Shown: in pieces, positions 3,463 through 55,375 of the stretch | Position numbering within the stretch: position 1 is the first letter of the stretch | Layout of the letters: each line of letters opens with the position of its first letter | Source: Deltaproteobacteria bacterium | GTDB lineage: Bacteria > UBA10199 > DSSB01 > JACPFA01 | Direction: 5' to 3' | NCBI GenBank assembly: GCA_016183235.1 | Contig: JACPFA010000021.1 | Coordinates: 33,596 to 97,595 of the forward strand | Length of the DNA stretch: 64,000 nt | Notes under the pieces: generated by a model | Told to the model about the DNA's origin: nothing | Databases searched by the model: none | What the model saw: only the letters and a program-made list of their open reading frames with translations | Program-made: the position numbers and the translations under genes

Positions 3463-3568
3463 ATGGATCCTCAGGTCTTAGCCCGGGATGACGTCATATA
3501 TATAGATCCTAGGTTTTAGTCCGGCATGATGGCGCTATGTCATCCCGGGCTAAGACCTGAGGATCCAT
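3463..3568. repeat. Palindromic element, family C (30-nt perfect inverted repeat)
   Basis: ATGGATCCTCAGGTCTTAGCCCGGGATGAC (3463-3492) has its exact reverse complement at 3539-3568, with a 46-nt spacer. Related copies lie at 41224, 44900, 54304 and 55311. Confidence 0.8.
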
Positions 3569-15175: not shown

Positions 15176-15556
15176 ATGTCTTCAAAAGAAGTGCTTCTCG
15201 ACACGCATGTCTTTTTATGGCTTCTCTCACAGTCAAAACGGCTAAAGTCTTTAATCTGGTTAAAGGACTTTTCTATTTATTGTATTTCACCAATTAGCAT
15301 TTTAGAAATAAGATTTCTTGAAGAATGTGGTCGATTGAAGATCGATTTGGAAAAAATCATCGAGGGGATTCGGTTTGATGGTCGATTTAAAATCGATGAT
15401 GTCTCGCTCGAAAGATTGTGCTTTCAGGCATTAGAAATTTCATGGACTCGTGATCCCTTTGACCGTTTTTTGGTAGCCCATAGTTCGCTTCGGCGAATCC
15501 CTTTAGGAACCTGTGATCATACGATCCAAAAGAACTACCCCAGGGTCGTTTTTTAG
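15176..15556 (+). CDS. vapC: PIN-domain toxin (VapC family)
   Basis: 126 aa. LLDTHVFLWLL N-terminal PIN motif and a C-terminal acidic residue (TCDHTI). Confidence 0.8.
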   Translation: MSSKEVLLDTHVFLWLLSQSKRLKSLIWLKDFSIYCISPISILEIRFLEECGRLKIDLEKIIEGIRFDGRFKIDDVSLERLCFQALEISWTRDPFDRFLVAHSSLRRIPLGTCDHTIQKNYPRVVF

Positions 15557-19725: not shown

Positions 19726-19823
19726 GAAATCTCCCAATTGGAATTTTACGGTGCGCCTCCAATATATGACTTTCCTACCAAGGTCAAGTGCAACGCTTCA
19801 GTGAAGTGTGGAAAAAGTGTTGT

Positions 19824-19894
19824 GTCATTCCCGCGAAAGCGGGAATCCAGTCTTCTTTCAAGTATTTCTGGATCCCCGCCTTCGCGGGGATGAC
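19824..19894. repeat. Palindromic element, family B (copy 1)
   Basis: GTCATTCCCGCGAAAGCGGGAATCCAG, an 18-nt loop, then CTGGATCCCCGCCTTCGCGGGGATGAC. Confidence 0.75.
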
Positions 19895-19989
19895 AGCCAA
19901 CCATCCCACTGAGGGGTTACGATTGACAATCATTCTTACTTGTGGTGATTTCCAAAACTTCAAGGCATTTTCTGTTTGGGTGAGTATCC

Positions 19990-21897: not shown

Positions 21898-21914
21898 AGG
21901 GAATGTTGAAAAAT

Positions 21915-21983
21915 GTCATTCCCGCGGAGGCGGGAATCCAGAACTGTTTAAAATCACTGGATCCCTGCCTTCGCAGGGATGAC
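21915..21983. repeat. Palindromic element, family B (copy 2)
   Basis: GTCATTCCCGCGGAGGCGGGAATCCAG, a 15-nt loop, then CTGGATCCCTGCCTTCGCAGGGATGAC. Outer flanks GTTGAAAAATG / GCATTTTTCAAC are also inverted. Confidence 0.75.
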
Positions 21984-22138
21984 AGAAAGTGCATTTTTCA
22001 ACGGTCCTCTAAAAAGGGCCCTTTGCTTGCTTAATTTTAGTGCAGGTGAGTAAGTTTTGAGCACCCCTTGACCTGTTGTAAAACAGGTTTTTCAATCGAA
22101 ATCTTTATAAATCAGTGAGTTAGTAAGACCATATTGAG

Positions 22139-24421: not shown

Positions 24422-24506
24422 AAAAGTTCCTCCAGTAAGTTTAAAGAAACACCCTAATCCAAAAAATTCAACCCTAAAAATAATTTTCTAAAATATTCAG
24501 AACCAC

Positions 24507-24866
24507 GTCTTTTTAAAAAGTAGGTAGGGCCTATCCTTGTTTGCAAACGCGCACCGTTCGCCCTACCGTCCGCCATCTGTCATTGCGAGCCCAGCAGGGT
24601 CCTTCGGCAAGCCTCAGGATAAACTCAGCAATCTCTTCTGTTTAAGCGATGGGATTGCCACGCTCGCCAACGTGGCTCGCTCGCAATGACAACATTTGTA
24701 TTGCCTTCGTGCGGGCTCTCTCCTGGTGCCCTTAAACAAACTTAGGACGTGCGGTCAAAAAAGAAACCTCTTTTTGATCAAGGGGGATTTTTTTTCTTGA
24801 CCGGCTTTTTCATAGATGCGCAATGTTTGCCAACAAGGATAGGCCCTACCTACTTTTTAAAAAGAC
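24507..24866. repeat. Composite nested palindromic element (42-nt terminal inverted repeats enclosing a family-A hairpin)
   Basis: GTCTTTTTAAAAAGTAGGTAGGGCCTATCCTTGTTTGCAAAC is matched in inverted form at 24825-24866. Inside lies GTCATTGCGAG...CTCGCAATGAC (24579-24690) plus another imperfect hairpin. Confidence 0.75.
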
Positions 24867-24882
24867 TTCTCCGTAAATATTT

Positions 24883-25105
24883 GCAGAGATATAAAAAGTT
24901 ATTTTGAGTTGGGCTAAGGGGTCTATCGAGAACCTGTAGCAGGAGTAAAGCCGTAGGAGGTCAAAAAAATCCTATTATTTTTTTGAATTAGAGGATGACA
25001 GAGGAATACTCTAATTCAATAAAAATAAAGGATTTTTTTGGCCGAGTAGGCTTTACGGGTGCGGGTTCTCGATAGACCCCTTAGCCCAACTCAAAATAAC
25101 TTTTT
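24883..25105. repeat. Three-level nested palindromic element
   Basis: 42-nt arms AAAAAGTTATTTTGAGTTGGGCTAAGGGGTCTATCGAGAACC (24883-24924) with the reverse complement at 25064-25105. An inner arm pair sits inside them. The innermost hairpin GAATTAGAG-GATGACAGAGGAATA-CTCTAATTC recurs at about 52655-52700. Confidence 0.75.
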
Positions 25106-25124
25106 AGGTGCGGTGATTTGTAAA

Positions 25125-33521: not shown

Positions 33522-34190
33522 TTTATAATAGTGCAGCGCAGCCTTCCATGCTGTTGCTTCGTAACTTAGTTTAGGAGTTCCTGGGGGAATGACTTGTTCA
33601 AACTTAGGATGTAGGTAAGGAGAATCAGACAAGAAATATTTTACGTCAGTGAAAAGATGAAAATCGAATAAGCTCAATGTTGCATCCCTGACATTAGCTC
33701 CAACAAAATCATCAGGCGAATTGATTAACCAAGCCCCTGGGCCCATGTAACGATTTTCAAGAATACTTAAGTAATTCAGCAAAGGATGAACAATATGAAG
33801 TTTGTTGGTAAGATCGGTAATGTAAGTATGATCACAGACCGAAGTTTTTAGGTAAGCCCGTGGGATGGGTGCATATTCGTCATTTTTATTCTTGCCAATG
33901 GCATAGGTCCACATCAGAGAAAATTGGGGTTGATAAGAGGATAAACCCTCCTTTAGCCAGTAGTATGCAGTAGAGGCTGCGGCAGCGCTTGTGGAATAAG
34001 GAAAGGCTCTAATCCAACTGTCGGTTGCATAAGGTGGTGAAGAATTATAAAGTTGAAGTAATTGATTAGCGATTTGAGCGGGGTTGAAACTTTCGCAAGG
34101 AGAAGCTTGTGGTGAAGGACCTGTTTCGTGAGGAGGAGTGATTGTGCTAGTTATACTTACCGAAGCTGAGGCCGGAACGGGAGGACTCAT
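33495..34190 (-). CDS. Hypothetical protein
   Basis: 231-aa ORF with a Ser/Thr/Pro-rich N-terminus. No recognisable motif. Its 3' end overlaps the acs 3' end by 27 nt (convergent). Confidence 0.4.
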
Positions 34191-39783: not shown

Positions 39784-39901
39784 CGATCTAACTTGAAGTG
39801 ATGGATTTGGGGTTTGACAAATAAGTGTAAACGTGGGAATGATCCCCGGTCAATTAAACTATTACGGCCGGTTTCGGCTTTTTATTTTGGAGATAGATTT
39901 C

Positions 39902-40222
39902 ATGAATCAAAAATTGTATGTGGGTAATTTACCCTTTCAAGTCACTGAAGACGAATTAAGAAACACCTTTGCCGCTACTGGCGAGGTGGCTAATGTTCAA
40001 ATTATTACTGATAAGATCTCAGGTCGGTCAAGGGGATTTGCCTTTGTCGAAATGGGAAGTGCCGAAGCCGCGAATGAAGCCATTGGTAAGTTAGATGGAA
40101 CCAGCTTAGGTGGTCGTAATATTGTGGTCCGTGAAGCCCGCCCGATGAATAAAAATGGTGGTGGCGGTGGTGGTGGCAGACGTGATTTTTCAGGTCGCCC
40201 CCGCGGTCCCAGACGCTATTAA
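39902..40222 (+). CDS. RRM-type RNA-binding protein with Gly/Arg-rich tail
   Basis: Start at MNQKLYVGNLPF (RNP2) and RGFAFVEM (RNP1). GGGGGGGRRDFSGRPRGPRRY tail. RBS GGAGA upstream. Confidence 0.85.
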   Translation: MNQKLYVGNLPFQVTEDELRNTFAATGEVANVQIITDKISGRSRGFAFVEMGSAEAANEAIGKLDGTSLGGRNIVVREARPMNKNGGGGGGGRRDFSGRPRGPRRY

Positions 40223-40947: not shown

Positions 40948-41198
40948 AAAAGTTTTACTGAGGCTGCTGACAAAGCCGGCGCTCCAGCGCATGCGCCTCG
41001 GGACAGGGTCCGCGGCGGGCTCCTCTGTCATTGCGAACCCAGCAGGGTGAAGCAATCCCTTCTGTCTAACCGGTGGGATTGCCACGCCCGTTGGGCTCGC
41101 AATGACAGAAAGCCCATAACGTCATCCATATGAGGTCGAAGCTTCCGCGATGGCTTTGTCAGCAGCCTCAGTAAAAATTTTTCAAAGATTGCGCCAGT
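40942..41198. repeat. Nested palindromic element (36-nt outer arms enclosing a family-A hairpin)
   Basis: CTTTGAAAAAGTTTTACTGAGGCTGCTGACAAAGCC (40942-40977) has its reverse complement at 41163-41198 (1 mismatch). GTCATTGCGAACCC...GCTCGCAATGAC sits at 41027-41106. The left arm overlaps the rnhB stop codon. Confidence 0.75.
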
Positions 41199-41223: not shown

Positions 41224-41253
41224 ACGTCATCCCGGGCTAGACCCGGGATCCAT
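41224..41253. repeat. Family C half-element
   Basis: ACGTCATCCCGGGCTAGACCCGGGATCCAT matches one arm of the 3463/44900/54304/55311 elements. Confidence 0.5.
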
Positions 41254-41800: not shown

Positions 41801-41928
41801 GCCTTTTCGAAGCCGGAAGTGCAAAGTCTTGCCGAATCCGGCAGAGGCTCCCTCAACCACGAGCAAAGTGGTTTCGGGTAGCCTCTTCCCGCTTCGGCAA
41901 GACTTTGCACTTCCGGCTTCGAAAAGGC
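41801..41928. repeat. Palindromic element, family H (36-nt perfect arms)
   Basis: GCCTTTTCGAAGCCGGAAGTGCAAAGTCTTGCCGAA (41801-41836) has its exact reverse complement at 41893-41928. The 56-nt centre shares a core with 56061-56114 inside folC. Confidence 0.75.
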
Positions 41929-42657: not shown

Positions 42658-42850
42658 TTTTTTGCTATTGATCTTTAAAATCATTTATTTACGATTGAGG
42701 GGTTTGATTCAGAGTAGATTGCTTAACAAGCATCTTTCAGAAGATGCATCGAGCGTGTTTAAAACGCTTCGAAATAAATATCATCGAAGAACCAACTAAA
42801 AGATTGAAGAAATAGTGAGGTCGAAAAATTATTGAAATAATAGCGCGTGT

Positions 42851-43297
42851 GTCATCCCTGCCCCTGCCTGCGCAGGGGTAAACTCCGGCAGGGATCCAGT
42901 CATGTGTTTGTTTATTGCCGGATAAACTTCATAAAAGCTTTTCATAGAGATCTTTCCATTTTGGATTCAGTTCTTCTATCAGTCTTAATTTCCAACTTCT
43001 TTTCCATTTTTTAAGTTGTTTTTCTCGTGTGATGGCTGCATTCACATCATCAGTTTCCTCAACGTAAACAAGATGATGCACTTTATATCTTTCAGTAAAT
43101 CCTTTAATCAGATCATTTTTATGTTCATAAACTCTTCTCACTATGTCATTAGTTACACCAATATAGAGCGTTCCATTTCTTCGACTTGCCATAATATAAA
43201 TAAAATACTTTTTCATCGCGCTCTATTTTCACTTAGTGAAAAAAAAGACTGGATCCCTGCCGGAGTTTACCCCTGCGTAGGCAGGGGCAGGGATGAC
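42851..43297. mobile_element. Candidate autonomous family-B element: 51-nt terminal inverted repeats flanking a GIY-YIG nuclease gene
   Basis: 42851-42901 (GTCATCCCTGCCCCTGCCTGCGCAGGGGTAAACTCCGGCAGGGATCCAGTC) and 43247-43297 are reverse complements, 50/51 identical. The termini are those of the gene-less hairpins at 19824 and 21915. The flank AGAAAGTGCATTTTTCAAC is shared with 21984-22002. Confidence 0.55.
42929..43216 (-). CDS. GIY-YIG nuclease family protein (COG2827/UPF0213 type)
   Basis: 95 aa. YIYIMASRRNGTLYIGVTNDIVRRVYEHK...GFT..Y...LVY.E....AI.REKQLKKW is the canonical small GIY-YIG domain. Confidence 0.85.
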   Translation of the reverse strand: MKKYFIYIMASRRNGTLYIGVTNDIVRRVYEHKNDLIKGFTERYKVHHLVYVEETDDVNAAITREKQLKKWKRSWKLRLIEELNPKWKDLYEKLL

Positions 43298-43363
43298 AGA
43301 AAGTGCATTTTTCAACAAACCCATCAAATAATATTTTTGTTCTCCTGTTTACGAAAGAATCCC

Positions 43364-44884
43364 TTAAGCTATTTTGCGTTGACGGATGGCTTTTTTGCGG
43401 CTTACTTCGATTTCTCGCCAAATGAGGTCGATGGTTTTGAGGCCTAAGAGTAGTTTGCCTTCAAAGCCTAAGGCGGCTAGCACTTCGGGGCTGGTGAGGA
43501 ATAAATTTTTATAAAAAGTGCGATTGGAAATAGGGAAAAGATCGGTAAATCGTTTGGGGACGATTTCGTAAATAGGGTTTTCTTGGGCGTTTTCGCGAAA
43601 GATTTCAAAATCGTCTTTTTCTAGGGCGAATAATAAATTGCCTTCTTCTTGTTCGTGAGTGGCGGGTTGATCAAGGGGGAAGATGAGCCTTAAACTTTCG
43701 GCAAAGGGCATGAGGTGGTGCAGGTGGTCGCTGATTTCGTCGTGGATGACTTGTAAAAATTCTTTGGGGGAATGCAAAAATTCGGCTTCTAACAAATAAG
43801 AAACGTTTAGAAAAATAGGGGCATGGCTTGCAAGTTCGGTGGGTTGAAAGACATTAACATGAAAAAAATTAGACCCGGTGAGGGGTTTGTTGGGATCGGC
43901 AATGAAAAGCAGATTTTCTTTCATGCCCTCGGGGAGTTCGTCTCGGTTAATTTCGTAACGAATACTAAAGTGATATTGTTTGGGGGTAATCGAGCGAATT
44001 TGTTTGAGCATGGTGTGGGTCCAAAAACTTTTGGGGATAAACGGCTCAATGCTGCGGACCCGGGCATTCCACAATAAATAGCGGCAGCCAATGGTGCCTT
44101 CAAAACCGGCTAGGCGAATCCCTTGAATTTTGCGTTTTTCAATTTCTAAGGCTTCGATGTGAACATTGTTTTTAATCACGCCCGAATAAGATTCGATTTT
44201 ATCTAAAAAGACCTTTTTTAAGCGACCCATGCCACCTTTAACTTCGTAGAGTACACAGTTTTCATTCGAGAGCAGCTTAGAAATAACATAAGTATAAGGG
44301 TTGTCAGAATAGGTGCTGGCTAGAAAGCGCAGTTGGGCTTCTAAAAAAGTTTTGATGTCGAGGTTGGCCTTTAAATCTTCTAAATAACTCGAAAGCCGTT
44401 CGGTTAAACCGCTATTTTGAATAAATTTTTTAAATTTCCATTTTTCTTGAAAGGTTTTAGGCAAAATTAATTCTTGCAAAGTTTCGGTATCGAGTACCGA
44501 TTCAAAAAGATCCATGGAACTATAAAATTCTTTAACCAATTTAAAGTCGTACGGAAATTCTCGCTTGAGTTCTCTTTCAAAGAGATCGCGATCAGTGAAG
44601 ACATCGAGACGATGGTTGGGTAAAACCACTTGGTAAGGGATAGAGAGTTTGCGCACGACGGCTAATTCGTGGTCCATGATCGATAGCCGCCCTAAGATGC
44701 TTTTAAACAGCTTGCTGTCGAGGTGGGTGACTAAATTGGGTTGGATATCTTTTTTGGTGGACGCAAGTTCTTTGTCGAAGTTGAGCACAATCACCGACAG
44801 CCCGCGCTTGGCCAAAAAGGCGCCGGTGATTAACCCTGCCAAATCCATCCCTACAATGAGTACATCACAATATTTTTCAGACAT
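43364..44884 (-). CDS. FAD/NAD(P)-binding oxidoreductase (phytoene-desaturase-like)
   Basis: 506 aa. The N-terminal CDVLIVGMDLAGLITGAFLAKRGLSVIVL is a dinucleotide-binding fold. No further assignment possible. Confidence 0.55.
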   Translation of the reverse strand: MSEKYCDVLIVGMDLAGLITGAFLAKRGLSVIVLNFDKELASTKKDIQPNLVTHLDSKLFKSILGRLSIMDHELAVVRKLSIPYQVVLPNHRLDVFTDRDLFERELKREFPYDFKLVKEFYSSMDLFESVLDTETLQELILPKTFQEKWKFKKFIQNSGLTERLSSYLEDLKANLDIKTFLEAQLRFLASTYSDNPYTYVISKLLSNENCVLYEVKGGMGRLKKVFLDKIESYSGVIKNNVHIEALEIEKRKIQGIRLAGFEGTIGCRYLLWNARVRSIEPFIPKSFWTHTMLKQIRSITPKQYHFSIRYEINRDELPEGMKENLLFIADPNKPLTGSNFFHVNVFQPTELASHAPIFLNVSYLLEAEFLHSPKEFLQVIHDEISDHLHHLMPFAESLRLIFPLDQPATHEQEEGNLLFALEKDDFEIFRENAQENPIYEIVPKRFTDLFPISNRTFYKNLFLTSPEVLAALGFEGKLLLGLKTIDLIWREIEVSRKKAIRQRKIA

Positions 44885-44899
44885 AATAGCATTTCATAT

Positions 44900-44956
44900 A
44901 TGGATCCCGGGTCAAGCCCGGGATGACGTCATGCCGGCCCCCGAGCCGGCATCCAT
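44900..44956. repeat. Palindromic element, family C
   Basis: ATGGATCCCGGGTCAAGCCCGGGATGACGTCATGCCGGCCCCCGAGCCGGCATCCAT. Confidence 0.7.
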
Positions 44957-45534: not shown

Positions 45535-45709
45535 TTAACCGTCCCGTTACAGTATGGATATATGACATAAGATCATGAGCCGAGACAAGGAAGATGAGCA
45601 AAAAGCGCGGAGGCGTAGCTGTGGCTACGTCGAGCACTTTTTGTGAAATCTGACGCAGTCGCAGGCCATGAGCTGAAGTCAGATGTCCATACTGTAACGG
45701 GACGGTTAA
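45535..45709. repeat. Nested palindromic element, family D (copy 2)
   Basis: Outer arms TTAACCGTCCCGTTACAGTATGGA / TCCATACTGTAACGGGACGGTTAA enclose the 91-nt core (45577-45667) shared with 1739-1831. The right arm overlaps the purN stop codon. Confidence 0.75.
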
Positions 45710-46314
45710 TAGTATTCCACTTTGACCTTGCGCCCTTGGAGATGAACCTTGCCTTGGGCGAATTTTTCAATCACTTCAGAATAAAGTTGATGTTCAGAAA
45801 CTAAAATGCGTTCGCTTAAACTTGCTTCGGTGTCGTTTTGTAGCACAGGGACCACCTGTTGCGCAATGATGGGGCCTGAGTCAGTGCCTGCATCGACAAA
45901 GTGCACGGTGCAACCCGCAATTTTAGCGCCGTATTCGATGGTTTGACGTTGGGCGTGCAGGCCTTTAAAAGCGGGCAACAGCGCAGGATGAATGTTAATT
46001 ACTTTGTTAGGATAGGCTGCTAGAAAAGTTGGAGTGAGTAGTCGCATAAATCCCGCTAAGACGATTAAATCGATGGGGTATTCTTGGAGTTTTGCGATCA
46101 GAAGTCTATCAAAATTTTCGCGATTTAGGTTTTGTGCTTCGATAATGTGGGTGGGCACATGATGGGCTTCGGCAATCTTCAAAGCCTTGGCCTTTGGATT
46201 ATCTGAAATCACACAGCTAGTTTGAGCTGATAAACGACCGGTTTGAATATTTTTTAAAATCGCTTCTAAATTGGAACCTTGCCTAGAGGCGAGGACGGCA
46301 ATGTGAAAGGTCAT
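45706..46314 (-). CDS. purN: Phosphoribosylglycinamide formyltransferase
   Basis: 202 aa. IAVLASRQGSNLEAIL, INIHPALLPAFKG and DxG motifs are typical of PurN. Confidence 0.9.
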   Translation of the reverse strand: MTFHIAVLASRQGSNLEAILKNIQTGRLSAQTSCVISDNPKAKALKIAEAHHVPTHIIEAQNLNRENFDRLLIAKLQEYPIDLIVLAGFMRLLTPTFLAAYPNKVINIHPALLPAFKGLHAQRQTIEYGAKIAGCTVHFVDAGTDSGPIIAQQVVPVLQNDTEASLSERILVSEHQLYSEVIEKFAQGKVHLQGRKVKVEYY

Positions 46315-47348: not shown

Positions 47349-47386
47349 AAATAATTTTAAATAAAAACAATAGGTTATTATTGATT

Positions 47387-47459
47387 GTCATTGCGAGGAG
47401 TCAGCGACGAAGCAATCTCACACAATTAAGAGATTGCTTCGGCCTCGCCTCGCAATGAC
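47387..47459. repeat. Palindromic element, family A
   Basis: GTCATTGCGAGGAGTCAGCGACGAAGCAATCTC-loop-GAGATTGCTTCGGCCTCGCCTCGCAATGAC. Confidence 0.8.
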
Positions 47460-47509
47460 AGAGTCTTTAACACCGGTTACCGAAAAATTTTTTATCGTTA
47501 AGATAAACG

Positions 47510-52535: not shown

Positions 52536-52785
52536 GTCATTGCGAGCCCAACGGGCGTGGCAATCTTCCTTTCTTAGCCACGTCTTTTCGAGGTAGGGAG
52601 AGGCCAAGTGAGAGCCCGCGCCCGGTCGGCCTACTCAGGCTAAAAAATTTTTTGTTTTTAATTGAATTAGAGTATTCCTCTGTCATCCTCTAATTCAAAA
52701 AAAACAATAAAATTTTTTAGCCTTCGTACGTCCGACCTTTAGCGCTAAAAGGCTCTCCCTTGACCTCTCTCTACCTCGAAAAGAC
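52536..52785. repeat. Composite repeat cluster (family-A half-element + nested palindrome related to 24507-25105)
   Basis: The half-element GTCATTGCGAGCCCAACGGGCGTGGCAATC comes first. Arms GTCTTTTCGAGGTAGGGAGAGG.. (52582) pair with ..CCTCTCTCTACCTCGAAAAGAC (52785). These enclose inner arms and the GAATTAGAG/CTCTAATTC core. The flanking TTCTCTGCAAATATTTGAGAGATAT resembles 24867-24892. Confidence 0.7.
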
Positions 52786-54303: not shown

Positions 54304-54403
54304 ATGGATCCTCAGGTCTTAGCCCGGGATGACGCAATGCCGTCATGCCGGACTTGATCCGGCATCCATTCATTCATTGTGAGGAGGAACGACGAAGCAA
54401 TCT
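54304..54403. repeat. Composite insertion: family-C hairpin plus family-A half-element
   Basis: ATGGATCCTCAGGTCTTAGCCCGGGATGACGCAATGCCGTCATGCCGGACTTGATCCGGCATCCAT (54304-54369) is followed by CATTGTGAGGAGGAACGACGAAGCAATCT. Confidence 0.7.
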
Positions 54404-54457
54404 TTTGATATCAGCGTTACTTCTACTGCGAAAATTGCTTCGCAAATTAAAAAAGTT

Positions 54458-55285
54458 TTGCGATGGATCGGTGCGCAGCGCGGGTATCAACATTTATCCC
54501 CCTTGATTAGCCAAGATCTGAGAATAGCCTTACAAGAAAGCCTCGCCAATGCCTTTCAGCACGGCTGTTGTCATCAGCAACGCCCCGCCCAAGTTAAAAT
54601 TGGGTTAACTGCTAAAAAAATTATTTTAGAGGTTTTTGATGCTGGGCCGCCTTATTTGCTGCGGCCCAAAACAACTATGGCTTTGATCGAACATGGGCGG
54701 GGGTTGGGTTTGATTTTGCAAGCGATGGATCGTTGTGAGTTAAAACGAAGGGGTCAGGTCAATACTTTAATCATGGTCAAAAGTTTGGTGCCGAAAAAGA
54801 ACATTGATTTATTTGTGGAACTGATTGAACGGCTTAATCAGAGGTTGCGAGAGCGCCGTGCCGTAGCGGATTTATATCAATTTTTTCTCGAGTTTATTGG
54901 TTATGCTTTCAATGTTAATCGGGCAAGTCTTATGATTCTTGAGGCCAAGAGCCAGCAACTTCAAATGGTAGCCAGCCTAGGTTACAAGCCGAACCTGATG
55001 CAAAAAATTGTGGTTAAGCCAGGGCAAGGGATTGCAGGGCGAGTATTTTCAAAAGGGAAAGCAGAATTGATGCGACATGCTCCCAATCCTCGTTACCAAT
55101 CTGAGGCGTCACTTTCAGTGCCCATCGTAGCTTCACCCTTGAAGATTGGGGAAGAGACTTTAGGGGTAGTCAATATAACCGACCGTCGCGGAGGCATGCC
55201 ACTTAAATCAGAAGATATTAAGTGGTTATATGCCATGGCAAGTCAGTTGGCGGCGGTAATTAAGATAAGGGAATTATTAAAATGA
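54458..55285 (+). CDS. RsbW/SpoIIAB-like anti-sigma serine kinase fused to a GAF domain (5' end apparently disrupted)
   Basis: N-box QESLANAFQHG, DAGPPY and GRGLGL form the HATPase core, followed by a GAF-like domain (VNRASLMIL...GIAGRV...LSVPI...GVVNITDRR). The same frame is open from 54383 but has no start codon before TTG 54458. Confidence 0.7.
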   Translation: MRWIGAQRGYQHLSPLISQDLRIALQESLANAFQHGCCHQQRPAQVKIGLTAKKIILEVFDAGPPYLLRPKTTMALIEHGRGLGLILQAMDRCELKRRGQVNTLIMVKSLVPKKNIDLFVELIERLNQRLRERRAVADLYQFFLEFIGYAFNVNRASLMILEAKSQQLQMVASLGYKPNLMQKIVVKPGQGIAGRVFSKGKAELMRHAPNPRYQSEASLSVPIVASPLKIGEETLGVVNITDRRGGMPLKSEDIKWLYAMASQLAAVIKIRELLK

Positions 55286-55310
55286 CAATGTTGGGTTAAG
55301 AATGAAATGA

Positions 55311-55375
55311 ATGGATCCCGGGTCTAGCCCGGGATGACGTAATGCCGTCATGCCGGACATTGATCCGACACCCAT
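55311..55375. repeat. Palindromic element, family C
   Basis: ATGGATCCCGGGTCTAGCCCGGGATGACGTAATGCCGTCATGCCGGACATTGATCCGACACCCAT. Confidence 0.7.

Follow-up and report, generated by a model that had tools for sequence, protein, structure and literature searches.

The question raised by this locus is whether a small nuclease gene belongs with the hairpin repeat that encloses it, and whether it takes part in spreading that repeat. The locus lies in a 64,000-nt stretch (positions 33,596 to 97,595) of contig JACPFA010000021.1 from assembly GCA_016183235.1, a metagenome-assembled genome (MAG) of an uncultured 'Deltaproteobacteria' bacterium. Below, the whole stretch is called the window. At 42929-43216 it carries a gene for a GIY-YIG nuclease of 95 amino acids (aa), bracketed by inverted copies of a repeat that begins with GTCAT. 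The initial annotation had read the gene and its termini as a candidate autonomous element, and two gene-less hairpins in the window for its derivatives, miniature inverted-repeat transposable elements (MITEs). As judged from sequence, it is near certain that the locus is an instance of the Ssn/SRM system, in which an SsnA-type nuclease is paired with its cognate Ssn-related motif (SRM), called Neisseria Transformation Sequence (NTS) in Neisseria. The best overall explanation joins this membership to a recent gain in the window's lineage and to a relationship between nuclease gene and hairpins like that of REP-associated tyrosine transposases (RAYTs) to repetitive extragenic palindromic (REP) sequences and their hairpin-forming doublets (REPINs). 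Taken as a whole, we consider it very probable.

The repeat arms and the nuclease gene

The cassette, written SRM-ssn-SRM below, and its flank consist of four features:

42850-42901, plus strand: downstream SRM, long variant, with a 51/52 match to the upstream arm
42929-43216, minus strand: ssn gene for the 95-aa GIY-YIG nuclease, assigned by Pfam and by identity to the N. gonorrhoeae ssnA-locus product
43247-43298, minus strand: upstream SRM, long variant, which folds as a single-stranded DNA (ssDNA) hairpin (-14.4 kcal/mol, z = -2.8)
43298-43316, unstranded: 19-nt flank outside the upstream SRM, on the gene strand GTTGAAAAATGCACTTTCT, immediately 5′ of GTCAT and common to 21984-22002

The inverted copies first described as 51 nt long were borne out as 52-nt arms with a single mismatch (51/52 identical), and none of 100 shuffles gave such a match. 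A repeat search extended both arms to 60 nt at 93% complementarity. Each arm is one unit in itself, its loop widened to 24 nt by a nested hairpin. On the gene strand, the upstream SRM reads TGTCAT-CCCTGC-(nested hairpin CCCCTGC-CTAC-GCAGGGG, then TAAACTCCG)-GCAGGG-ATCCAGTC. Both arms open with TGTCATCCCTGC and close with GCAGGGATCCAG.

The start codon of the gene lies 32 nt past the upstream arm and its stop codon 29 nt before the downstream arm. The GIY-YIG assignment was confirmed with Pfam (E = 1.1e-17, residues 3-77); the same search showed no second significant domain in the 95-aa protein, which is thus small (under 150 aa) and single-domain as in the Ssn family. It had been called the only open reading frame (ORF) of the bracketed segment, which is slightly loose, as mechanical ORFs overlap the cassette at 42847-43014 (plus strand), 43016-43447 (plus strand) and 43233-43421 (minus strand); none of them has any support. 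A weak, sub-threshold NCBIfam match of the protein to TIGR01453 scored 22 bits against a cutoff of 56, and the PDB sequence search returned no solved relative.

The recurrence of the right-hand 19 nt at 21984-22002, noticed initially, was reproduced: blastn aligned 18 nt at 100% identity with 21985-22002, and the adjoining base is identical too. The flank covers the position where Ssn enzymes reportedly cut (PMC11893778). Apart from these 18-19 nt, nothing outside the arms resembled other ssn loci. When the cassette was scanned for promoters and terminators, nothing exceeded the shuffled expectation. The Rfam scan of 40.5-45.5 kb yielded only a sub-threshold RT-6 match, so no RNA family accounts for the repeats. 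In agreement with the initial annotation, a Pfam scan covering 44 of the 45 window ORFs that reach 110 aa or more (all except 39833-40222, 129 aa) showed no transposase, integrase or RAYT domain, and no Y1 (IS200-like) transposase domain was found in the ORFs scanned. The 64-kb window holds no ssn gene besides 42929-43216.

Identity of the nuclease and of its repeat

The Ssn/SRM system was described by Chenal et al. (2025, Nat Commun 16:2388; PMC11893778). That work defines the 28-nt NTS, CGTCATTCCCGCGMAVGCGGGAATCYRG, which contains the older dRS3 repeat, and generalises it to SRMs. SsnA is a 94-aa single-domain GIY-YIG protein (CDD cd10448, GIY-YIG_unchar_3) that binds the motif in ssDNA only and only on the GTCAT-to-ATCCAG strand, ignoring double-stranded DNA and RNA. 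The bound strand is hydrolysed a few nucleotides before the motif on its 5′ side; this binding and cutting were found for four family members. SsnA tolerates loop changes and loop extensions, and no joining activity is reported for it. In N. meningitidis, SsnA reduces transformation (integration of incoming NTS-bearing ssDNA) about 5-fold, and deletion of ssnA raises transformation 5-fold, for which an intact NTS is required. At least one SRM lies near 71% of the Ssn homologs, and 42% have an SRM on both sides, so flanking SRMs are usual in the family without being required. The SRM-ssn-SRM flanking and the comparison with insertion sequences and with RAYT/REP are already in that paper (PMC11893778). 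The novelty that the initial annotation had seen in a link between small GIY-YIG proteins and such repeats is thereby lost: repeat, protein family and architecture were all published in 2025. Literature searches combining GIY-YIG with MITE, REPIN or REP, or on COG2827/UPF0213/YhbQ, found nothing relevant, whereas a search with the repeat sequence itself led to the Ssn paper; later literature on Ssn mobility was not found. What is new here is the comparison of filled and empty sites and a long-loop SRM variant, both modest additions.

The window protein shares 52 of 85 residues (61%) with the product of the N. gonorrhoeae ssnA locus in a pairwise comparison (E = 1e-38), and tblastn located the match in NZ_CP119142.1 at E = 3e-18 and 60.5% identity. 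This gonococcal ortholog locus was used in place of the N. meningitidis reference CAX49033.1; it came from PLSDB, where two N. gonorrhoeae chromosomes carry a plasmid label. By the homology criterion of PMC11893778 (E < 1e-10 over more than 75% of the length, with a stricter 60% identity), the window protein is an Ssn homolog. Residues Y7 (in FIY), Y18 (in LYIG) and E65 (in TREKQLKKW) align with the Neisseria protein; their equivalents in N. meningitidis SsnA are Y6, Y17 and E64 (PMC11893778).

The repeat gives the same answer. Unit 19823-19850, TGTCATTCCCGCGAAAGCGGGAATCCAG, has 27 of its 28 bases in common with the Neisseria NTS consensus and departs from it in the first base. The strict published SRM pattern matched five times in the 64-kb window against 0.11 expected from shuffles, and in a set of 80 homologous loci its matches were 25-fold denser near ssn genes. 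As in Neisseria, GTCAT and ATCC(A/G)G are invariant around a GC-rich hairpin, and the repeats are intergenic, flank the gene and are enriched within the window. One finding weighs against the assignment: the strict pattern allows a loop of 0-5 nt and misses the cassette's own arms, because their loop is 24 nt long. Many other units escape it as well, since it favours short loops and stems of the CCCGCG type. A 24-nt loop nevertheless fits the reported tolerance of the enzyme for large loops (PMC11893778). The long variant, in which GGG(G)TRAACTCCGGC follows a nested hairpin, stands directly upstream of ssn in three unrelated contigs (L052, L083 at 307-357, and the window). The published pattern cannot detect it and so overlooks units directly beside ssn genes.

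The window system differs from the Neisseria one in its host, an uncultured MAG whose protein is known here from sequence, in the nested-hairpin loop outside the published pattern, and in orientation. In the window GTCAT faces away from the gene, whereas the gonococcal ssnA locus has canonical NTS on its flanks with GTCAT towards the gene, the opposite of most loci. In that gonococcal record (L087; NZ_CP119142.1, 1881700-1882000, a 2.17-Mb chromosome), the ssnA frame is off the upstream ATG, with an apparent frameshift near codon 5.

Repeat units across the window

The units follow an oriented plan: (T)GTCAT, a GC-rich stem of 6-7 bp, a loop, the complementary stem, and ATCCAG. By structure, at least 15 units are present in the window. 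Their stems differ (TCCCGC, CCCCGC, CCCTGC, CCCGGG, GCCGGC and others) and each remains self-complementary. A second subtype ends in ATCCAT and forms head-to-head pairs at 3463-3568, 44900-44956, 54304-54369 and 55311-55375. Outside the cassette, the following units were annotated:

3463-3568, unstranded: degenerate second-subtype SRM pair, 3463-3492 (minus) and 3539-3568 (plus), with 30-nt arms that are 100% complementary
19823-19895, unstranded: tail-to-tail SRM doublet (REPIN-like), 19823-19850 (plus) and 19868-19895 (minus) around a 17-nt spacer; -26.1 kcal/mol, z = -7.8
21914-22002, unstranded: tail-to-tail SRM doublet, 21915-21940 (plus) and 21958-21983 (minus), with the 19-nt flank 21984-22002; -21.9 kcal/mol, z = -5.8
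41225-41253, plus strand: single SRM of the second subtype (stem CCCGGG, tail ATCCAT); the syntenic contig L086 has a different palindromic element there
44889-44956, unstranded: head-to-head SRM doublet, 44901-44927 (minus) and 44928-44955 (plus), within a 67-nt segment absent in the relatives L086 and L089
54304-54369, unstranded: head-to-head SRM pair upstream of gene 54458-55285, a degenerate unit 54304-54333 (minus) and 54342-54368 (plus)
55311-55375, unstranded: head-to-head SRM pair downstream of the same gene, 55312-55338 (minus) and a degenerate unit 55347-55374 (plus)

Each of the gene-less hairpins (19824-19894 and 21915-21983) is built from two inverted units (6-bp stem, 4-nt loop) placed tail to tail around a 15-18-nt spacer. 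The observation that a short loop stands there in place of the gene holds, and the architecture is that of the cassette minus the gene. The termini of the arms do recur in these hairpins, as had been stated, but the exact arm stem, CCCTGC/GCAGGG, is found among their units only in 21958-21983, and the stems differ between the two units of one doublet. The sequence ATCCAGTCTTCTTTC opens the spacer of doublet 19824-19894 and also the 5′ leader past the upstream SRM in the homologous locus L082. For an empty-site comparison at these two doublets, the sole close homolog of the intervening gene lies on a 1.9-kb contig, and the next one is 60% identical.

In the region 54304-55375, two SRM pairs surround an ordinary gene (54458-55285, with HATPase_c_2 and GAF domains), a configuration equal to the 'NTS-gene-NTS' of Neisseria surface proteins.

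Distribution of the gene-repeat association

At a threshold of E < 1e-5, 7157 homologs of the window protein were found; many share 65-90% identity with it, and their hosts span widely separated phyla. When each species was represented by a single genome, 80 loci at 57-80% identity with 83 homologous genes were obtained. Among their sources are cyanobacteria, Nitrospirota, candidate-phyla-radiation groups, Alpha-, Beta- and Gammaproteobacteria, Ignavibacteria, Rickettsiales and Bradyrhizobium. Units on both sides with GTCAT outward were found at 44 of the 83 genes, typically within tens of nucleotides of the start and stop codons, and at least one unit lies within 200 nt of 70 genes. Near the gene there are 3.3 units per kb; the remainder of these loci has 0.31 per kb, and shuffled sequence 0.02 per kb. 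The 185 units of these loci have 51 different stems, around which GTCAT and ATCCA are invariant. The association of gene and repeat is a property of the family and is not peculiar to the window locus, and the bracketing that the initial annotation described at one locus recurs accordingly in these 44 cases. Close ssn homologs with 79-89% DNA identity occur in unrelated gene contexts, the DNA similarity being confined to the gene and its units. No homolog was found in phage records.

Two observations on individual loci may be added. On a Planktothrix agardhii plasmid (L088; NZ_LR882964.1, 18847-19131), an annotated ssn homolog has a type IIL MmeI restriction-modification gene on one side and DISARM drmA on the other, which places it in a defence island. 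Tandem 5′ half-units adjoin the ssn genes of L082 (700-790), L083 (690-800) and L025 (2420-2476), for example TTGCTTGTCATYCC about every 18 nt. Such arrays may be footprints of repeated cutting and repair upstream of GTCAT.

Filled and empty sites in relatives

The syntenic contig L086, of about 90% nucleotide identity, was obtained in a metagenome scan with the 506-aa neighbour of the cassette (43364-44884). Protein look-ups added three further metagenome contigs with the same arrangement and likewise about 90% nucleotide identity (L089-L091; longest locus 21.5 kb), and two outgroups, L092 and L093, at 71-73% protein identity. The syntenic relative was represented in three metagenomes. Synteny with L089 stops after window position 52576. 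Between the 506-aa gene and the gene for a 250-aa protein, the relatives have a gap of 47 nt, compared with 706 nt and the cassette in the window. The 67-nt head-to-head doublet (44889-44955) is cleanly absent in L086 and L089. Neither SRM units nor an ssn gene were found in L086, L089, L091, L092 or L093, while the matching 19 kb of the window hold five units at three sites and ssn. The filled and empty sites that the autonomous-element proposal had led one to expect were thus seen, with gene and repeats missing at the corresponding sites of L086, L089 and both outgroups. The parsimonious reading of these alignments is a recent gain of the cassette and of dispersed units, and the gain would fall in the window's lineage because the outgroups are empty too.

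The motif GGTTCTTTCGTAAA was noticed at the edge of the window-only DNA. It is found at window 43348-43361, in L081 at 2002-2032 and 2502-2532, and in L083 at 287-300, upstream of the cassette in its closest relatives only. The window copy starts right after the stop codon of the neighbour. L081 has the motif in a 31-nt version, as an outer inverted repeat that encloses the whole SRM-ssn-SRM unit. The motif may be a sign of a larger mobile unit, or of a site preferred as target.

Proposed mechanism and alternative explanations

SsnA cleaves its motif on the GTCAT-to-ATCCAG strand alone, so the inverted, outward-facing arms of the window would leave one cleavable site per strand just outside the cassette. 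For the minus strand the cut is predicted near 43299-43306, for the plus strand immediately 5′ of 42850. The relationship would resemble that of RAYT and REPIN, with one nuclease gene amid its own hairpins. Nicks at extruded hairpins would stimulate repair, recombination or template switching, by which units, doublets and occasionally the gene would be copied; gene-less doublets would spread as a by-product of this nick-stimulated repair. We put forward mobilisation of the repeats by the nuclease as a hypothesis. That units and gene spread in this RAYT/REPIN-like way has about even odds; that the nuclease itself transposes DNA by cut and paste is less likely. It is a tentative idea, which we rather doubt, that SRM-ssn-SRM is an active mobile module of a new mechanism, in which a hairpin-guided hydrolytic ssDNA nickase drives the copying of hairpin-bounded DNA. 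If this were true, the module would seed REPIN-like doublets and dRS3/NTS-type repeats across bacteria, and three such events within about 10% divergence would be preserved in the window and L089 as a natural filled/empty pair.

Several facts weigh against mobility. We know of no GIY-YIG nuclease with rejoining activity; to our knowledge, these enzymes hydrolyse DNA with no covalent intermediate and no known strand-transfer step. Past the arms there are another 66 nt and about 190 nt of window-only DNA, so the indel is not bounded by GTCAT. A clear target-site duplication was not seen; an imperfect AAAT(G) repeat is the most that the edges of the doublet insertion show. The 19-nt flank that recurs at 21984-22002 falls outside the inverted repeat and at the expected cut, which points to copying by recombination or template switching and not to excision at the termini. 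The 64 kb contain one ssn gene only, and the role demonstrated in Neisseria is restriction of incoming ssDNA, not transposition (PMC11893778).

A purely host-serving function is a serious alternative, one we would give a real but minor share of the probability. Ssn would then restrict or trim incoming or exposed ssDNA at SRMs and move neither gene nor repeats, and the units beside ssn would be due to regulation or to a general intergenic preference of SRMs. The NTS-dependent rise of transformation on ssnA deletion (PMC11893778), the single ssn copy in the window, the SRM pairs around the ordinary gene 54458-55285 and the position of the L088 homolog between MmeI and drmA all agree with it. It leaves unexplained how five units and the gene were gained at three sites in 19 kb within about 10% nucleotide divergence, why homologs 79-89% identical in DNA sit in unrelated contexts, why 60-70% protein identity is kept across phyla, and why the tight outward-facing geometry is found at 44 of 83 genes. 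A host-serving role in ssDNA restriction is compatible with the RAYT/REPIN-like proposal. A classical autonomous transposon, with the GIY-YIG protein as transposase and the doublets as MITEs excised and reinserted at GTCAT termini, appears unlikely. It would account for inverted termini that are 51/52 identical, for doublets that carry the cassette ends with 15-18 nt where the gene would sit, for ATCCAGTCTTCTTTC at the start of both the 19824-19894 spacer and the L082 leader, and for filled and empty sites, and no other transposase was found in the window ORFs scanned. The chemistry argues otherwise: as is generally known, GIY-YIG hydrolysis proceeds without a covalent intermediate and gives no strand transfer alone, and an enzyme that cuts one motif strand, in ssDNA only, has one cut site per cassette strand, not two. 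The indel boundaries, the missing target-site duplication and the shared 19-nt flank beyond the terminus speak against it as well. What stands of the original autonomous-element proposal is therefore the association across phyla, the doublet architecture and the empty sites, whereas the indel edges, the lack of a clear duplication and the hydrolytic enzyme do not fit it.

In a homing model, Ssn would nick empty doublets, and host recombination would copy the gene from a filled doublet with the units as homology arms. GIY-YIG homing enzymes are generally known to use host repair, the tail-to-tail doublets equal the cassette minus its gene, and arms of 27-52 nt are near the minimal length for RecA-dependent recombination. 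We regard this model as quite unlikely, as the empty site of L086 and L089 has no SRM at all and hence no doublet, the reported cut is outside the unit and not in the spacer, both window doublets are still empty, and the units of a doublet have unequal stems. Chance, by which two independent hairpin repeats came to lie on either side of a resident gene, could draw on the facts that SRMs are intergenic and also flank another window gene. It is extremely improbable and was rejected: the arms are 51/52 identical including the unusual 24-nt nested loop, 44 of 83 homologs show this configuration too, units being enriched about 10-fold locally, and gene and arms are jointly absent in the relatives.

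Comparison with known systems

The likeness to RAYT with REP/REPIN lies in a small nuclease gene between inverted copies of a dispersed hairpin repeat, in gene-less inverted doublets that fold into long hairpins, a likeness by analogy only, and in an enzyme that, as judged from the Ssn family, would act on ssDNA hairpins. The window enzyme is a hydrolytic GIY-YIG protein and not a HuH/Y1 transposase, and neither a covalent intermediate nor rejoining is expected of it. In IS200/IS605 elements, sub-terminal hairpins are likewise recognised as ssDNA and the cut is offset from the hairpin, but both ends are cut on one strand by the Y1 transposase, whereas the cassette would have one cleavable site per strand. 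With GIY-YIG homing endonucleases (I-TevI, I-BmoI), the system shares the catalytic domain and a small, selfish-looking intergenic gene that would need host repair to spread. It differs in having no DNA-binding extension, an ssDNA substrate (as judged from the Ssn family), no intron or intein, and repeats that flank the gene. The core of Neisseria dRS3 and of the Neisseria intergenic mosaic elements (NIMEs), ATTCCC-N8-GGGAAT, is present in units 19824-19849 and 21915-21940. dRS3 is the palindromic core only, whereas the functional entity is the oriented GTCAT...ATCCAG unit (PMC11893778).

The window and its relatives provide a clean comparative case for testing whether Ssn activity creates repeat copies. 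The case bears on the origin and spread of dRS3/NTS-type repeats; whether Ssn genes are mobile or domesticated was left open in PMC11893778.

Other repeat elements and genes in the window

A 177-nt MITE-like element at 45535-45711 has terminal inverted repeats of about 30 nt (CTATTAACCGTCCCGTTACAGTATGGA...) and is apparently flanked by TA. It is absent from L086 and L089 and unrelated to the SRM units. A second palindromic family also begins with GTCAT and has the form TGTCATTGCGAGG...CGAAGCAATCTC-loop-GAGATTGCTTCG...CCTCGCAATGACA. Its copies were found at window 47387-47461 and 41024-41109 and at 4634-4750 of L086. The copy at 47351-47490 is present only in the window in comparison with L089, and the L086 copy occupies the site of the window SRM 41226-41252. 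Another nuclease may have this family as its cognate repeat, or the family may be a diverged kind of SRM.

An inverted repeat with 52-nt arms at window 41801-41928 was compared with L086 4026-4078. Both window arms carry 25 extra nucleotides, and the extras are complementary to each other, so the arms change together. This suggests arm-to-arm copying (template switching), a process that would account for the 51/52 match between the ssn arms as well. Nested inverted-repeat elements of other families are located at 24491-25106 and 52582-52785, with arms of 35-58 nt, some of them 100% complementary. Finally, four small PIN-domain ORFs (159-530, 15176-15556, 56870-57265 and 57566-57970) are probably toxins of toxin-antitoxin systems.

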